Assembly: GCA_042571085.1 (NCBI GenBank)
Contig: JBHPGB010000002.1
Coordinates: forward strand, 6,796-70,795
Direction of reading: 5' to 3'
Source of the DNA: Patescibacteria group bacterium
GTDB lineage: Bacteria; Patescibacteriota; Minisyncoccia; Phycocordibacterales; JBHPGB01
DNA length: 64,000 nucleotides
Numbering within the stretch: the first letter of the stretch is position 1; every line of letters starts with the position of its first letter. Shown piece by piece: positions 3,293 through 63,220 of this stretch. The translations under genes were made by a program, and so were the position numbers. Under the pieces are notes generated by a model. It saw nothing but the letters and a program-made list of their open reading frames with translations. It was not told the DNA's origin and searched no databases.

Positions 3293-5902
3293 TTATAAAT
3301 GTTTTTTCAAATACTCTCCTGTAATTGATTTTTTGTTATCGGCCACCTGCTCTGGTGTACCCTTCGCAATCAAATTTCCGCCACCCTTTCCTCCCTCAGG
3401 GCCGATGTCTACTATATAATCAGCTGTTTTTACTATATCTAAATTGTGTTCAATTAAAACAACCGTGTTTCCTTTATCTACTAATTTCTGTAAAATTTCA
3501 ATCAATTTTTTCACATCTTCATAATGCAAACCAACAGTTGGCTCATCCAAAAGATAAATAGTTTTTTGCACATGAGGACGATACAATTCTGAAGAAATTT
3601 TTACTCTCTGTGCTTCTCCACCAGAAAGCGTCGTTGCTGATTGTCCCAATTCCAAATACCCAAGCCCTACATCATTCAAACTTTTTAGACGATCGTGAAT
3701 TGCTGGAATATCTTCAAAAAATTCCAGAGCTTCTTCAACTGTCATTTTAAGCACATCGTAAATATTTTTCTTTTTATACTTTACTTCCAAAGTTTCTTTT
3801 TCAAATCTTTTTCCGCCACACACATCACACTTCACATACACAGTCGGCAGAAAATGCATTTCAACAGCTATCTGCCCATTACCTTGGCATGATTCGCAGC
3901 GACCACCCTTCACGTTAAAACTAAAGCGGTTAGCTTTCCAGCCACGAAATCGCGCTTCTTCTGTTGCCGCAAACAAATCTCTAATATGTGTAAACGAACC
4001 AGTATATGTAGCTGGGTTAGATCTTGGTGTGCGTCCAATCGGTGCTTGATCTATAAGAATAGAACGAGAAACATATTCAGAACCAGTAAAGTCTGCGCAA
4101 TTATATATATCATTGCTTCTATATTTTTTATCGAAACGCGCCCGTAAGTTTTTATACAAAATCTCATGCATCAAAGAGCTTTTTCCAGAACCAGATACAC
4201 CGGTAATCACACTCATTTTCCCAAGCGGAAAATCAACATTCATGTTTTTGATGTTAAATATATTTCCTCCGCGAATTTTGATTGAACCTTTGTCTTGATC
4301 GCGGCGTTTATGCGGTACTTCTATTTCAGTATCTCCACGCAAATAATCAAGTGTTAAAGATTTTGATGGGTTTGTTTTTGCTGATAAAAGTTTTTCCAAA
4401 TCATCTGCAACAACAATCTCACCGCCATGTATACCCGCCTTTGGACCGATGTCCACAATATAATCAGAAGCAAAAATAGTATCCTCATCGTGCTCGACAA
4501 CAATGATGGTGTTGCCAAGGTCACGTAGGTTTTGAAGTGTTTTTATGAGACGGTCATTATCACGCTGGTGTAGGCCAATAGTAGGCTCATCAAGCACATA
4601 CAGTGCTCCAACCAAGCGAGAACCAAGCTGTGATGCCAAGCGAATACGCTGTGCTTCTCCACCAGAGAGTGTGTTGGCGCGTCTATCTAATGTAAGATAT
4701 TCAATTCCAACATCAAGCATGAAAAATAACCGAGCTTCAATTTCCCTCATAACAGGCTCGGATATTTCTTTATCTCTAACAGACAATTTCAAACTAGTGA
4801 AAAATTCTGCTGCTTCGCCAATAGACATTGATGTCACTTCTACTATATTTTTACCCCCGATTAAAACATTAAGCGCTTCCGATCTTAATCTCGCACCTTT
4901 ACACGTATCACATACCTCTTTACCAAAGAAATGTTTTGTACCAAGGCCATTACAAGCCTCACAAGCACCATAAGGTGAGTTGAATGAGAAAAGTCTTGGC
5001 TCAACTTCTGGATATGAAAAACCATCCTCCGGACAAGAAAACTTCGATGAAAGTATTATTTCATCATCATCTATGCGCACGCGTACAAGCCCATCAGCTT
5101 CATCAAGAGCGCGCTCTAGAGATTCCTGTAAGCGTTGTTTAGTATCTTTCGCATTCTCTTTAAAATCAAGTAAATCAATTTCATCCACCAAAACGTCGAT
5201 GTCATGCTTCTTTGTTTTGGTGAGCACAATCTGGTCACGTAAAGATTTCATTTTTCCGTCAACTCGCACATTTATATACCCTTTGCCTAGTAAATCATAA
5301 AGAAGTTGGTAATACTCACCCTTTCTCCCACGCACCACCGGTGCAAAAAGCTGTACTGAGCTAGACTTATATTCCACACCCATTACTTTTTTTGTACCAT
5401 TTTTCTTTTGTGTCTTTCCTGCACCTTTCACTTTTTTCAAAACAAAATTCAAAATCTCTTCATTAGAAAGCTTTTCAATTTCCCTACCACACTCCAAACA
5501 ATGCGGCTTTCCAATACGCGCAAAAAGTACACGCATATAATCGTATATTTCTGTAATAGTCGCCACTGTTGAACGTGGGTTGTTTGATCTACTTTTCTGA
5601 TCAATAGAAATCGCTGGAGAAAGCCCGACGATCTCATCAACATCTGGCTTCTGCATTTGACGCAAAAATTGTCGCGCGTATGCAGACAAAGATTCTACAT
5701 AACGACGCTGTCCTTCAGCAAAAATAGTATCAAAAGCAAGAGAAGATTTTCCTGATCCAGATAATCCAGTAAACACAACCATCTTATTGCGAGGCATTTC
5801 TACCGTCACATCTTTGAGATTATGTGTGCGGGCACCTTTTACTATTATTTTGCCAGACTCGAACATGTCTGATTCTTTTTTGTTATTTGTATTCTTTTTC
5901 AT
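3293..5902 (-). CDS. uvrA: excinuclease ABC subunit A (start uncertain: MKKNT at 5902 or MFESG at 5866)
   Basis: Two ABC ATPase modules ([20 protein letters not shown]), zinc-finger CxxC pairs, LSGGEAQR signatures. Confidence 0.9.
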
Positions 5903-43454: not shown

Positions 43455-43712
43455 CGTTTACTTTTAAAGAGTAAGTAAGGTTATTTTATAAACTCACTTA
43501 CTCCTATTTAATTATCTTTAATAAGTGCAGTATAAAACACATCCCCTTATTTTTCAAGGCAAAATTAAAACCCCCGCAGTGTTAGTGCGGGGGGTGTTGA
43601 TGCGAAGTCATAGACTCCTTGTAGATATCATCCGGCGAAATCATTTCACCTTCAATTGATTATCTCTTTAAAGAACAAATTCCTTTTCGCTCTAGCCGGT
43701 GATCGATTGTGA

Positions 43713-43847
43713 TCAGGCGCAGGTCGCGGACGGTGCGGGCAGGCCGATGGTGCCGGTGTCGCGGGTCAGGCCGATGGCAGTGGTCAGGTTGGCGGTTGCA
43801 ATATTGGCATCAATACAGGTCTTGGTCAAACGGTGTCGATGGTGCAT
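43713..43847 (-). CDS. candidate small protein A (44 aa, MHHRHRLTKTCIDANIATANLTTAIGLTRDTGTIGLPAPSATCA) in a roughly 60%-GC island
   Basis: Strong SD AAGGAGAG 7 nt upstream of ATG. Near-consensus promoter TTGACA-N16-TACACT. Terminator AAAACCCCCGCAGTGTTAGTGCGGGGGGT downstream. In-frame paralogue at 61271-61357. Confidence 0.4.
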   Translation of the reverse strand: MHHRHRLTKTCIDANIATANLTTAIGLTRDTGTIGLPAPSATCA

Positions 43848-43913
43848 CGTGTCTCTCCTTACTGGCCGTTTTGGCGAAGTGGGTCAGCAACGCTTTTGCT
43901 AACCTCCCTCGTA

Positions 43914-43940
43914 GTGTACACGCCACACAAAATTTGTCAA
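43914..43940 (-). promoter_or_regulatory. sigma-70-type promoter of locus A (TTGACA -35, TACACT -10)
   Basis: Minus strand reads TTGACAAATTTTGTGTGGCGTGTACACT. Confidence 0.5.
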
Positions 43941-44031
43941 GCCTTTTCTTCAACTAACAAAACTTACTCTCCTACACACTAAAAAAATTGCTTAAAATAT
44001 AAATATTTTAAGCAATTTTCATTTTTTATAA

Positions 44032-60194: not shown

Positions 60195-60818
60195 TTATAG
60201 TGATTTTAGTACTACAATCTCACCTTCTTTACTCTCCACATCTTTCTTTTTTATCGTAAGTTTGTCTACAGCCTTAAGCGATTCTGATCCGGCTTCTTTC
60301 AAAAACTGTTTCAAAGATTTGTCGTCATAATCCATTGGAATAATGATACTTGGTCCAAGTTTGGTAGATAGCTTGTGAGCCTCTTCTGGTGCAAGTACCT
60401 CACCACCCCCTGTTGGTACAAAAAGAATATCAATACCGTCAAGACCTTCTTTAATTTCATTTGAAAGTTCTGGGGTATTCAATACACCAAGAAATGCAAT
60501 ATTTATATTATCAATCAAAATTGAATAGATGGTATTTATTTTATTTTCCTTTTCGTAAGAAGATTCTGCTCCAAAACCTTTTACAAAAATACCACTCCTT
60601 TCATATTCACCTGGTCCTGTGATCGCAAACGGAACCTTGTCTCCGTATTTCATATCCTCAACACCATTGAAATCAACATGATTAAGAGAAGAGACAGCAA
60701 TATCCGCGCCGAATTTCGCGGCTTTAATTTTTGATTTTTTTCCGACAGGATTAATTGCGACCGTTGTATCGCCTTGTTGGATTTTGAAAAATTGTTTTCC
60801 GTAGTAAGTTATTATCAT
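60195..60818 (-). CDS. MBL-fold metallo-hydrolase
   Basis: Metallo-beta-lactamase fold length and His/Asp metal-ligand blocks (SSLNHVDFNG, VPTGGG, IPMDYDD). Confidence 0.65.
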   Translation of the reverse strand: MIITYYGKQFFKIQQGDTTVAINPVGKKSKIKAAKFGADIAVSSLNHVDFNGVEDMKYGDKVPFAITGPGEYERSGIFVKGFGAESSYEKENKINTIYSILIDNINIAFLGVLNTPELSNEIKEGLDGIDILFVPTGGGEVLAPEEAHKLSTKLGPSIIIPMDYDDKSLKQFLKEAGSESLKAVDKLTIKKKDVESKEGEIVVLKSL

Positions 60819-60990
60819 GGGCTACAGTATATCGTATTTTGTATTCTGTATCCAGTATTAAAAATGTTTATAAATGGCTTGATAAATTTTTAACTAATGT
60901 TATATTTGAATTAGAAATTAATCAGTAAAAAGAATTGTGGTGTACACTGGTGTATACCATACATACCTCCGGATATTTTATTCGGAGAAG

Positions 60991-61057
60991 AAAGGAGGTG
61001 ATCCGAGCCTTGGGGAGCAATGCAAAAACATTGACTCCTTGTATCTACGACTTCACC
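60991..61057 (-). ncRNA. isolated 16S-rRNA 3'-terminus-like segment (h44 3' strand + divergent h45 + anti-Shine-Dalgarno), with no 16S body
   Basis: Minus strand reads GGGTGAAGTCGTAGATACAAGGAGTCAATGTTTTTGCATTGCTCCCCAAGGCTCGGATCACCTCCTTTCT. Compare canonical GGGGTGAAGTCGTAACAAGG...GGATCACCTCCTT. Confidence 0.5.
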
Positions 61058-61135
61058 CTTCCCTTCAACCCTGGGTGCACCTCTTTGAGGTGCACCCATA
61101 GCTTTTTATATAAAATAAACAAGTAGGTGTTGGGG

Positions 61136-61163
61136 TTGACAAATCCTGTGGGTATGCTAAGAT
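61136..61163 (+). promoter_or_regulatory. sigma-70-type promoter of locus B (TTGACA-N16-TAAGAT)
   Basis: TTGACAAATCCTGTGGGTATGCTAAGAT. Confidence 0.5.
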
Positions 61164-61270
61164 ATCCACAGGTTCAGTTAGCGCGAGTAACATTGCTGCT
61201 GACCTAGCGAAGGTTCTGTGGCGACTGCCACAGCCTATATTGCCCTCTAGCCATACAAGGAACCAAGCCT

Positions 61271-61357
61271 ATGATTGTTCTCAATTTCAGTGCCATCGGC
61301 ACTTATCTTGATAATTCTGACACCATCCTGGCCACCGGCATCGTTGCCATCGCCTGA
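61271..61357 (+). CDS. candidate small protein B (28 aa, MIVLNFSAIGTYLDNSDTILATGIVAIA), in-frame paralogue of the locus-A peptide
   Basis: AAGGAA 12 nt upstream. Shares the in-frame blocks GCC ATC GGC, GAC ACC ... ATC ... CTG and terminal GCC TGA with the ORF at 43713-43847. 5'UTRs also homologous (GTTAGC...TTGCTGACC). Confidence 0.3.
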   Translation: MIVLNFSAIGTYLDNSDTILATGIVAIA

Positions 61358-61732
61358 TTGTCTGCCACCGGCGTAGCCCCTAAAGCAGGGCTCTCAAAGA
61401 GCAGTAGCCGTCTGGAAAACAGCTGAACGAAACGCTTGTTTTCCAGCCGGCTGGCCGCAAACCGCCAAATAACCCAAAACAATGCACGGAGGTGCACATG
61501 GGGCTATCGTATTGTACCTAATGGCGCAATGGATTGTGCCTGAACATCTGGTGTTCTACCAATAAAGGATTCGGTAGATGGTGTTCCTCATCAAGCAAAA
61601 GGGGTTTTCTCTGTCACACTAATAAAGCGCCCGTTCGGTGCTTCGCATCAAGATTGAAAGTCACTTGTTCTTCCGAGAATAAAACTTCAAAACTTAAGCA
61701 AATGCAATTTTTACGACAGTGAAAATCTAGCA

Positions 61733-61821
61733 GGACCCGCAGACGTCAAAAACGTCCCGGGTCCTTTTATTTTTTACATGGCTGGCGAGCGAAGCTCGCC
61801 AGCCATTTTTGAACTTTTGAT
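61733..61821 (+). terminator. two consecutive rho-independent terminators ending the locus-B transcript
   Basis: GGACCCGCAGACGTCAAAAACGTCCCGGGTCC followed by a T-run. GGCTGGCGAGCGAAGCTCGCCAGCC followed by TTTTTG. Confidence 0.65.
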
Positions 61822-62080
61822 TTGATGTTTTGGATTTAATATTGTATACTCTCTCCATTAACAGCGGGATTTTAAGATAACACTTTGTCGTCCACAAAAG
61901 GCAGTTTGACAAAGACTCTTGAGATTATTAACTTATCCGCATAAATTAAGCGGATTTTTTTGTGAAAATAAATGGAGTGGGTATTTGAACATACCCGCCA
62001 AATTTTTCTCTCGACAAACTCGAGAAAACTTAGGCGGGTAATATTTTTCTAAACTCACTTCGTTCATTAAGAAAAATATT

Positions 62081-63220
62081 ATGAGCATAGCAGAAACAAT
62101 AAAAGAAAAAGTTGCTGAAAAAATCGGCAAAAAAGATGACGATGAGAAACAAGCCGAAGTCAAAACAAGTGTAATGACTAAGCATATGGCAGATTTGCCT
62201 AATCCACCAGAAGTTGGTGAATTGGTAGACGGTGTAATCGTTGGATTTGGTCGTGGAGCAGTTTATTTAGACTTACCCCCATTTGGCACAGGTATTATAT
62301 ATGGACGTGAGTACATAAATGCGCGCGATGTTGTTAAAAACAGTAATATCGGCGACATGATAACAGCGAAAGTTGTTGATGTAGAAAGCGAAGATGGATA
62401 TATAGAACTATCTTTGAAAGAAGCGCGCCAGGCACTCATCTGGGGTGAAGCTGAATCAGCAATCAAAAACAAAACTCTTCTTGAACTCCCAGTAAAAGAA
62501 GCAAACAAAGGAGGTCTTATTATTGAATGGCAAGGTATCGCAGGATTCCTTCCAGCATCACAGCTTTCAGCAGAACATTACCCACGCGTAGAAGATGGAG
62601 ATAAAGACAAAATTTTATCTGAATTGCGAAATCTTGTTGGACAAAAAATATCTGTCCTTATGATCAACGCAGATCCAAAAGAAGGAAAGCTTATCTTTTC
62701 TGAAAAAGGAATCGTTGATACAGATAAAACAGAAATTATTGAGAAATATTCTGTTGGTGACGATGTTGATTGTGAAGTTACAGGTATTGTGGACTTCGGT
62801 GTATTCCTTAAGATTGAAGATGGTCTTGAAGGACTTGCGCACATCTCAGAACTTGATTGGGGCTTGGTAGAAGATCCAAAACAGCTCGTAAAAGTTGGAG
62901 AAAAAGTGAAAGCAAGAATAATTGAAATCAAAGACAACAAAATTTCTCTATCAATCAAAGCACTTAAACCAAACCCATGGGAAGGTATCGAAAAGAAATA
63001 CAAGAAAGACGATACTGTGGACGGAGTGGTTATTAAATTCAATAAATACGGTGCGCTCGTATCAATTGAAGAAGGTATTGCTGGTCTAGCACATGTTTCA
63101 GAATTTGGAGATGAAGAAAAATTGAAAGCGGCTCTTGAGCTCGGTAAAACATACAAATTCAAAATCTCTTTGTTTGAACCAAAAGAACATAAGATGACCT
63201 TAAGTCTTCAAGCGGAGTAA
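62081..63220 (+). CDS. rpsA: 30S ribosomal protein S1-like (four S1 domains)
   Basis: Repeated S1 OB-fold motifs (GELVDGVIVGF, GDMITAKVVDV, GDDVDCEVTGIV, DDTVDGVVIKF). Confidence 0.8.
   Translation: MSIAETIKEKVAEKIGKKDDDEKQAEVKTSVMTKHMADLPNPPEVGELVDGVIVGFGRGAVYLDLPPFGTGIIYGREYINARDVVKNSNIGDMITAKVVDVESEDGYIELSLKEARQALIWGEAESAIKNKTLLELPVKEANKGGLIIEWQGIAGFLPASQLSAEHYPRVEDGDKDKILSELRNLVGQKISVLMINADPKEGKLIFSEKGIVDTDKTEIIEKYSVGDDVDCEVTGIVDFGVFLKIEDGLEGLAHISELDWGLVEDPKQLVKVGEKVKARIIEIKDNKISLSIKALKPNPWEGIEKKYKKDDTVDGVVIKFNKYGALVSIEEGIAGLAHVSEFGDEEKLKAALELGKTYKFKISLFEPKEHKMTLSLQAE

Follow-up and report, generated by a model that had tools for sequence, protein, structure and literature searches.

Does a short reading frame within a GC-rich, structured transcript specify a protein, or does it serve the RNA that carries it? 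This question is raised by locus B, a unit on the plus strand of a 64,000-nt stretch of contig JBHPGB010000002.1 from a Patescibacteria group bacterium (the window, whose numbering is used throughout). The window belongs to a genome of the Paceibacteria/Parcubacteria type and is AT-rich with a GC content of ∼37%, and locus B is its most GC-rich 500-bp stretch (0.50). It sits in a 1.26-kb gap between the gene of a Lactamase_B_3 hydrolase (60195-60818, minus strand) and rpsA (62081-63220, plus strand). We find that locus B is a real, self-contained RNA gene of about 610-640 nt, without a match to a known RNA or protein family. Our preferred reading, to which we assign a probability of roughly 0.4, is a lineage-restricted regulatory RNA with short translated leader-peptide-like frames and not a gene for a conserved protein product. 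Patescibacteria have tiny genomes and few classical regulators, and to our knowledge almost nothing is known on their regulatory RNAs or small open reading frames (ORFs). A full-text literature search on small RNAs (sRNAs) of Patescibacteria, or Candidate Phyla Radiation (CPR), found nothing relevant.

A self-contained RNA gene between the hydrolase gene and rpsA

For comparison, DNA of relatives (the L-numbered loci, from Paceibacteria metagenome-assembled genomes) was obtained via their S1 proteins. L083, L084 and L093 represent one species, the S1 protein of which is 88% identical to that of the window; the corresponding values are 87% for L081, 82% for L082 and 69% for L005. The order of hydrolase gene, gap and rpsA is kept in the close relatives. 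In the window, the neighbours of locus B are gyrA, an 87-aa ORF, the hydrolase gene, rpsA and pth.

Transcription of locus B is predicted to start near 61170, downstream of a promoter that is among the best-scoring promoter-like sites of the region (Table 1). Since such sites are overall not enriched around the locus (19 found versus 16.3 expected), the weight given to this promoter rests on its conservation in L081 (TTGACAAAT...TGCTAAGGT) and L083 (TTGACAAAT...TGCTAGGAT). The TTGACA-N16-TAAGAT promoter described in an initial annotation of the window is confirmed by its score and by this conservation. At the other end of the unit two intrinsic terminators are both present in the minimum free energy (MFE) fold, and the region of the first one (61728-61786) folds at -21.3 kcal/mol (z = -3.2). 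Thus, both strong terminators claimed before are real, but the second one had been placed ∼10 nt too far to the right, at 61788-61821. A simple terminator scanner missed both, which we read as a consequence of the internal loop of T1 and of the maximal stem of T2 absorbing the first T of its tail. The whole unit folds better than shuffled sequences (z = -4.3). Own promoter, terminators and a GC content well above that of the window support the earlier view of locus B as an independent GC-rich transcription unit.

The 5' leader is structured as well. In an alignment of four sequences, 95% of the cells in the paired positions are paired, and the pairing is register-specific. A covariance model built on the leader matches only the window, L081, L083, L084 and L093 in ∼0.75 Mb of related DNA, with E-values of 1e-15 to 1e-26 in three genomes. 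Used as a DNA pattern in metagenome contigs, the leader motif recovered the L083 species again and chance matches in high-GC contigs, and nothing else. Among 80 S1-anchored loci of species-representative genomes neither blastn nor nhmmer detected similarity to locus B, and the leader model added none.

Rfam gave no relevant match at the gathering score in the window, none at E<10 for 60500-62300 and none of relevance at E<0.1 in six related loci; ARAGORN found no transfer-messenger RNA (tmRNA). The initial annotation had recognised no signature of RNase P RNA, tmRNA, signal recognition particle (SRP) RNA or 6S RNA by eye, and these searches bear it out. It had also suggested the Rfam scan, with a known RNA as the alternative to its own view; no match explains the locus B transcript. 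Being GC-rich, structured and strongly promoted, locus B could be taken for a divergent housekeeping RNA of one of these four types, but the searches speak against it. Moreover, no equivalent of locus B was found in the hydrolase-rpsA slot of the close relative L082, leader covariance model included, and locus B is therefore unlikely to be essential. We consider a housekeeping RNA hardly credible.

Table 1. Positions of the features of locus B, and of locus A, in the window
Feature	Position	Strand	Description
Sigma-70-type promoter	61136..61163	+	TTGACA (61136-61141), 16 nt, TG-n-TAAGAT (61158-61163); extended -10; 10/12 matches
Structured 5' leader	61170..61256	+	fold z = -2.7
Leader hairpin P1	61177-61182 / 61198-61203	+	paired arms GUUAGC / GCUGAC
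Leader hairpin P2	61216-61222 / 61227-61233	+	paired arms CUGUGGC / GCCACAG
Shine-Dalgarno-like AAGGAA	61257..61262	+	8 nt 5' of ATG
sORF1	61271..61357	+	28 codons + UGA; peptide MIVLNFSAIGTYLDNSDTILATGIVAIA; 78% RNY, 56% C-ending, 96% pyrimidine-ending codons
CACCGGC heptamer pair	61333..61372 (61333-61339, 61366-61372)	+	brackets last codons and UGA
Long conserved hairpin	61412..61446	+	CUGGAAAACAGC, loop UGAACGAAAC, GCUUGUUUUCCAG; block conserved in L081
Module M2	61483..61540	+	Shine-Dalgarno sequence in hairpin, 7-codon mini-ORF, hairpin directly past stop
M2 Shine-Dalgarno hairpin	61483-61496	+	UGCAC-GGAG-GUGCA
M2 mini-ORF	61498-61521	+	ATG...TAA; MGLSYCT
M2 post-stop hairpin	61523-61540	+	same place in L081, other sequence
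Conserved block	61574..61604	+	GUAGAUGGUGUUCCUCAUCAAGCAAAAGGGG; conserved in L081, CUCAUCAA..AAGG part in L005
Intrinsic terminator T1	61733..61775	+	two-part stem 61733-61764, then U-tract TTTTATTTTTT / UUUUAUUUUUU
Intrinsic terminator T2	61778..61811	+	13-bp stem 61778-61806, GAA loop, UUUUU; hairpin in MFE fold
Locus A	43550-43945	-	upstream of clpB; 44-aa ORF, short 163-nt tail

Probable translation of sORF1 and the conserved tail

The 28-aa ORF of the initial annotation was recovered exactly as described, and we refer to it as sORF1. Its codons differ strongly from those of the host. Among 913 small ORFs of 18-80 codons in the window, sORF1 ranks first and the ORF of locus A second for RNY (a codon-pattern fraction) and C3 (the fraction of codons ending in C). 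The RNY/C3 values are 0.78/0.56 for sORF1 and 0.56/0.58 for the locus A ORF, compared to a small-ORF background of 0.22 ± 0.10/0.20 ± 0.11. C3 of the host genes is just 0.11-0.16, and the host prefers GCA, GGT and ACA, while GCC, GGC and ACC are used in sORF1-type frames. For B, A, L083, L029 and the two units of L010 (L010a and L010b) the in-frame values are 0.55-0.78 (RNY) and 0.50-0.66 (C3); they are lower in L081 (0.47/0.32). The other two frames of these ORFs do not exceed an RNY of 0.21; the periodicity is tied to the frame of the ORF, beginning at its ATG. sORF1 is C-rich, G-poor and dense in YC dinucleotides, with a C/G ratio of 1.6 that is followed by 1.4 in the next 40 nt (1.5-2.2 in the class of similar units introduced below, except for L081 with 1.2).

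The surroundings of the start codon are also conserved, as L081 and L083 keep a GAGGAA 7-9 nt from their start codons. The L083 species (including L084 and L093) has the same promoter and leader, and its ORF MIVLNPRAIGTYIDNYSTIMTTQACGQVASA aligns end to end with sORF1 with 19 of 28 residues identical (68%), one in-frame indel of three codons (9 nt) and a shared GxVAxA-stop; a terminator follows within ∼100 nt of the ORF, without a long tail. Since the Shine-Dalgarno (SD) sequence and AUG, the periodicity from the AUG, the in-frame indel and a codon class kept despite amino-acid turnover occur together, ribosomes probably read sORF1, in support of the translatability proposed before.

Whether the peptide is the selected product is a different matter. 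Between the window and L083 the amino-acid identity is 0.68 for sORF1, versus 0.90 for S1 and 0.83 for the hydrolase. Nevertheless, the codon of identical residues is unchanged in 15 of 18 cases (0.83) in sORF1, versus 0.64 in S1 and 0.55 in the hydrolase. Hence, sORF1 appears to evolve faster than its neighbour genes at the amino-acid level and slower at synonymous sites. In L081 the promoter and leader are present together with most of the blocks that make up the 400-nt tail, and its frame MNWQNPSGAATSIRIVEEHT-UGA is related to sORF1 at the DNA level. There, a UGA interrupts inside the homologous part (...ACC TGA ACC CTG GTC GGC GCC GGC in L081 versus ...ACC ATC CTG GCC ACC GGC in locus B). 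In the three B-type loci the UGA is found at codon 29, 32 or 21.

UGA is a minority stop codon in the window genome (7 of 46 genes), and in locus B it is bracketed by the CACCGGC heptamers listed in Table 1. CACCGGC has seven copies in the window, where 2.0 are expected, and four of them fall in loci A and B, each of which has one copy late in the ORF and one 10-14 nt past the UGA. As judged from these counts, the pairing around the stop is non-random. CCGGC motifs around the stop are also found in L083, L081, L010a/b, L029 and L005. Fast peptide turnover, host-rare codons, excess synonymous conservation and stop-straddling motifs together suggest that translation itself is selected and not the peptide.

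A genuine small-protein gene, in which leader and tail are ordinary untranslated regions (UTRs), is the explanation closest to the initial annotation, which had favoured a real small-protein family. It would involve a fast-evolving functional 28-aa peptide, for example a secreted or signalling one, with the C-terminal 5-6 residues after a conserved Gly being important. The conserved SD sequence and ATG, the L083 orthologue with its in-frame indel and common C-terminus, and the strong 3-nt periodicity in the phase of the ORF fit this explanation, as does the Gly 5-6 residues before the stop in the peptides of B, L083, L097, L029 and L010a/b. Fast divergence is typical of signalling peptides. 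However, the L081 frame has diverged and is truncated by a UGA, and the L101 orthologue of locus A codes for an unrelated 20-aa peptide. Pfam and NCBIfam gave no matches for nine peptides, and neither the locus A peptide nor an L010 peptide profile found database homologues; the B peptide, with its 28 aa, is below the size that the large protein searches can handle. Furthermore, the codon usage is opposite to that of the host with synonymous sites conserved in excess, and no export, modification or receptor genes adjoin locus B. The small-protein family is therefore not supported as it had been stated, and we hold a small-protein gene to be a doubtful explanation, although one with a real claim. 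Locus B would be of limited interest if it were no more than a small gene that evolves fast. A precursor of a ribosomally synthesised and post-translationally modified peptide (RiPP) or bacteriocin was considered and rejected, as no modification, export or immunity genes are among the neighbours of locus B.

Over 61271-61830 (560 nt) the frame of sORF1 contains five TGA and no TAA or TAG, while the other frames have nine and four TAA/TAG. In the locus A orthologue of L101 six TGA precede the first TAA; in L081 every frame contains TAA and TAG. We rejected read-through of UGA as well as a deviating genetic code, because L081 lacks the TGA-only pattern and the host genes are intact under code 11. 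The pattern itself could be a coincidence or a weak relic periodicity; the RNY/C3 bias persists weakly in frame past the sORF1 stop. One might see in locus B the decaying remnant of a short GC-rich gene, horizontally acquired or once longer, in which UGA stops arose variously. The high-GC-like codon usage, the changing position of the UGA, the weak continuation of the bias and the patchy presence (L082 without B, L100 without A) would agree with such a remnant. Decay is difficult to reconcile with a promoter, SD sequence, leader and M2 module that are conserved across genomes with largely randomised neutral sites, or with a C3 bias kept in several AT-rich lineages against mutation pressure, and the locus A peptide matches no larger protein. 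We regard this origin as improbable.

Downstream of sORF1, the tail (61358-61732, about 375 nt) contains no long ORF, in agreement with the ∼400 nt without a convincing ORF reported initially. Its 61395-61460 region, with the long conserved hairpin, folds at -28.3 kcal/mol (z = -3.6). A more specific element is M2 (Table 1). The strict M2 pattern, a GCAC-nGGAG-GUGC hairpin with the SD sequence followed by AUG and a frame of 7-8 codons, has exactly three matches in ∼0.8 Mb (MGLSYCT* in the window, MGLIRCI* in L081 and MIPVATEL* in L005), all of them inside tails of sORF1-type units; by our estimate ∼0.07 would be expected by chance. The L081 mini-ORF has two synonymous substitutions and ends, at an identical position, with another stop codon. 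In L005 the CUCAUCAA...AAGG block follows 3' of M2 in the same order. The initial annotation had suggested an RNA role from the long structured tail, and this is supported in the form of a conserved RNA module (blocks and M2 in L081, M2 in L005). Overall, the RNA-level parts, i.e., leader, tail blocks and M2, seem to be better conserved than the peptide.

These features would also suit a purely non-coding, trans-acting sRNA, with a merely coincidental frame and a C-rich stretch that serves as seed or binds a protein. Locus B is GC-rich in a 37% GC genome and folds better than shuffles, and its RNA blocks are conserved while the peptide is not. Nevertheless, at least eight independent units show a 3-nt periodicity in register with an SD-AUG frame, which is difficult to account for without ribosomes. 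In addition, the complementarity of locus B to the 3' end of 16S rRNA is not significant (z = -1.0), and its duplexes with the unit upstream and with the rpsA leader are long and uninformative and no better than those of shuffles; GGA is not enriched either. A solely non-coding function is unlikely in our view.

Locus A and the wider class

Locus A, located upstream of clpB, was regarded in the initial annotation as a paralogue of locus B. Its design is indeed the same, with a TTGACAAAT promoter, hairpin leader, SD sequence, RNY/C3-rich sORF, UGA stop and intrinsic terminator. The homology that had been claimed for the leaders was not recovered, as the B-leader covariance model misses A at E<10 and local alignment gives z = 1.1. 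Likewise, the in-frame alignment of the two peptides does not establish paralogy: phmmer finds nothing, and the similarity is at or near chance. The indel of a multiple of 3 that had been put forward carries no weight, because the aligned part is gapless and its similarity at chance level. At the DNA level blastn gives E = 5-9 and nhmmer no match; local alignment yields z = 2.1 for the whole units (20/300 shuffles as good) and z = 2.6 for the ORF plus 30 nt (5/200 shuffles as good). The kinship of A and B would thus be one of shared design (RNY/C3-rich frame, CACCGGC paired around UGA) and not of significantly alignable sequence. Locus A differs from locus B in its longer ORF, its shorter tail and a second mini-ORF running into the terminator.

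The L101 orthologue of locus A keeps the promoter, the SD sequence and the post-ORF block GGAATTTGTTCTTTAAA, and has a C-rich 20-aa frame, unrelated to that of locus A, and a long tail. Locus A is missing from the L081 genome and also from L100. A search of the locus A peptide against 1.84 billion representative proteins returned only the self-match.

The second mini-ORF of locus A consists of AAGGAG, 5 nt and AUG ACU UCG CAU CAA CAC CCC CCG CAC UAA; the 5' arm of the terminator is built from the final codons of this mini-ORF, with the stop codon located in the loop. By analogy, this would be an arrangement classically associated with ribosome-dependent read-through, here in the direction of clpB. 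The clpB gene comes 3' of locus A, with a promoter of its own and an inverted repeat (AGTAAGT...ACTTACT).

A class screen was applied to the SD-preceded small ORFs of all window and relative sequences (n = 2426), with thresholds of RNY ≥ 0.5 and C3 ≥ 0.4. Thirteen of the 2426 ORFs passed, and nine of these are class members: B, A, L083, L084, the two tandem L010 paralogues and an identical L099 copy, L029, and L005. A further similar frame, outside the nine, is found in L097. With the exception of A and the short L099 contig, the units occupy the slot between hydrolase gene and rpsA. Almost every unit is equipped with its own promoter and has a CCGGC-type motif on either side of the stop. Short (130-160 nt tail) and long (390-470 nt tail) forms occur. 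The alignment of B with L010a/b reaches z = 3.6-4.0, and cross-group scores are marginal. From its distribution, the class seems to be restricted to a few Paceibacteria lineages.

The two tandem units of L010 (2340-3590) are paralogous, with near-identical promoters and leaders. Their RNY-rich frames of 46 aa and 48 aa are 47% identical, and their tails measure ∼390 nt in the first and ∼140 nt in the second unit. In the second unit an SD-led mini-ORF of 18 codons (3527-3583) runs through the terminator. The L010 peptide profile search gave only a self-match.

Locus B could also be the mRNA for the toxin of a type I toxin-antitoxin system, provided with an extended, structured UTR. The strength of the promoter, the small ORF, the long structured leader, the patchy occurrence and the presence of multiple copies in a genome would agree with this. 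However, the middle of the B peptide is acidic and polar, and in L010b and L029 the entire peptide is polar; an antisense promoter is absent from 61130-61830, which led us to reject an antisense gene or type I antitoxin there. A toxin is accordingly very improbable. A 64-aa antisense ORF at 61303-61497 was rejected as well: it is out of register with sORF1, and the L083 sequence 3' of its sORF is unrelated, so the antisense ORF is unconserved there.

Another occupant of the slot is found in L098, where csrA (2416-2727; Pfam PF02599) takes exactly the hydrolase-rpsA position held by locus B in the window. csrA was not found in the window or in any fetched locus other than L098. It seems that small regulatory genes preferentially accumulate in this slot. 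The csrA gene of L098, together with hairpins having GGA in the loop, prompted us to consider locus B as a CsrA sponge. This was rejected, since GGA occurs six times compared to 6.9 ± 2.0 in shuffles and the window is without csrA.

Proposed function and neighbouring units

We propose that ribosomes translate sORF1 and probably the M2 mini-ORF, too. Translating the C-rich, G-poor, YC-dense stretch and terminating at the UGA beside a conserved motif would then set the fate of the RNA, potentially through RNA folding or decay, through access of Rho like in tnaC-type leaders, or through read-through in the direction of rpsA. The regulatory output would come from the 3' domain, and the peptide itself may be secondary or dispensable.

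Several points weigh against this proposal. Translation of sORF1 we infer from the SD sequence, AUG and periodicity only. The stop of sORF1 lies about 375 nt 5' of T1, and there is no direct overlap of ribosome and terminator in locus B. rpsA has its own promoter and leader past T1/T2, so that any cis-regulated gene would be hypothetical. A scan of 10 window proteins did not reveal Rho. The leader shows no double-sided compensatory changes in the four-sequence alignment, because it contains just three distinct leader sequences. The B group, A, L010, L029 and L005 appear to be linked by design, short motifs and marginal alignment scores. Finally, the L083 ORF is well conserved, with an in-frame indel and the same C-terminus, which also fits a functional peptide.

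Among known systems, locus B resembles Rho-coupled leader peptides such as tnaC in its architecture. The rut/boxA site of tnaC adjoins its UGA stop, and the UGA of locus B likewise adjoins a conserved C-rich motif. In common with leader-peptide RNAs in general (tnaC-tnaA, pyrBI, trpL), locus B has a short SD-led ORF with biased codons in a structured RNA, and the peptide sequence is largely unimportant; in the class, just the codon class is conserved. In related units mini-ORFs run into terminator stems: this overlap, typical of attenuators, is present in the second mini-ORF of locus A, in L010b and in the unit upstream of B, but is absent from B itself. A released RNA of locus B could act in trans, as in rnTrpL/peTrpL of Sinorhizobium, an attenuator RNA persisting as sRNA (PMC7968998; PMC7298713). 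Locus B differs from leader-peptide RNAs in the long distance between the sORF1 stop and the terminators and in having no evident regulated gene on its transcript, with rpsA being preceded by its own promoter and leader. Furthermore, its biased codons are those of a whole class (RNY, C-ending) and not of one amino acid, and there is no sequence similarity.

RNAIII with its 26-aa delta-haemolysin has the same layout as locus B. For the rare-codon/RNY composition and the paired CCGGC motifs we know of no counterpart in dual-function sRNAs. With these sRNAs (RNAIII/hld, SgrS/SgrT, SR1/SR1P; overview in PMC12310071) locus B shares a length of ∼0.5-0.65 kb, its own promoter and terminator, an ORF of less than 50 aa close to the 5' end and an extended, structured 3' domain. 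It differs from them in that no base-pairing target emerged from the duplexes with the unit upstream, the rpsA leader and the 16S rRNA 3' end, the peptide is not conserved among orthologues, and homology is lacking.

A more specific idea is that the class represents translation-sensing RNA cassettes. Their rare RNY/C-ending mini-ORFs, read by G34 tRNAs including Q34, would serve as a readout for the state of the translation machinery or of a subset of tRNAs, and a ribosome at the CCGGC-flanked UGA would gate the fate of the RNA, possibly read-through into rpsA or clpB. We put this forward as speculation and rate it as rather unlikely. If true, the cassette would sense a class of codons, in contrast to an attenuator that is specific for one amino acid, and the class would be previously undescribed. 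More generally, if locus B is a real regulator, a cassette beside rpsA and clpB would constitute a new way to couple translation status to RNA output. The conserved features, namely a codon class against host usage, the stop-codon motif and mini-ORFs with the SD sequence in a hairpin, provide a searchable signature that is missed by gene callers and Rfam.

Locus B is flanked by further small elements. Just upstream lies a separate small unit (60879-61108, plus strand) with the promoter TTGATA-16-TATATT. It contains a hairpin, CUCCGGA...UUCGGAG, with compensated changes in L081, L082, L083 and L029, and a stretch AAGAAAGGAGGUGAUCC that is a 16-nt perfect complement of the canonical 3' end of 16S rRNA (-30.4 kcal/mol) and that an ACCUCC located upstream can mask. 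Next comes the C-rich CACCCUUCCCUU; the terminator (61072-61098) is found downstream of it, within a frame of moderate C3 richness (0.41). Even L082, which is without locus B, has this unit. Its L029 counterpart (3683-3787) gave a sub-threshold match to sX13, a C-rich sRNA of Xanthomonas (29.8 bits versus a gathering score of 50, E = 0.08), which is probably a similarity of composition and architecture only.

In more distant relatives a different small unit is found just 5' of the rpsA promoter (L096 2530-2810, L097 2628-2850, L001 3611-3790). It shares the -35 context TTGACAAAT, contains an extended run of C (CCCCAUCCCCCC, CCUUCCCCC or CCCUCCCCCC) as well as a terminator CCCGUUAG...CUAACGGG, and by its sequence looks like an anti-SD-type C-rich sRNA.

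Between locus B and rpsA, the region 61822-62080 (plus strand) contains the rpsA promoter TTGATG-17-TATACT and a conserved leader. Pairing is possible in this leader between AACAGCGGGAU and the 5' arm of a hairpin that resembles a terminator (AUCCGC-AUAAAUUAA-GCGGAU followed by U7). The rpsA leader, which has no Rfam match, is a candidate antiterminator/terminator switch; in the rpsA leader of L001 the two elements co-vary, with GCGGAAUU pairing with AAUUCCGC.

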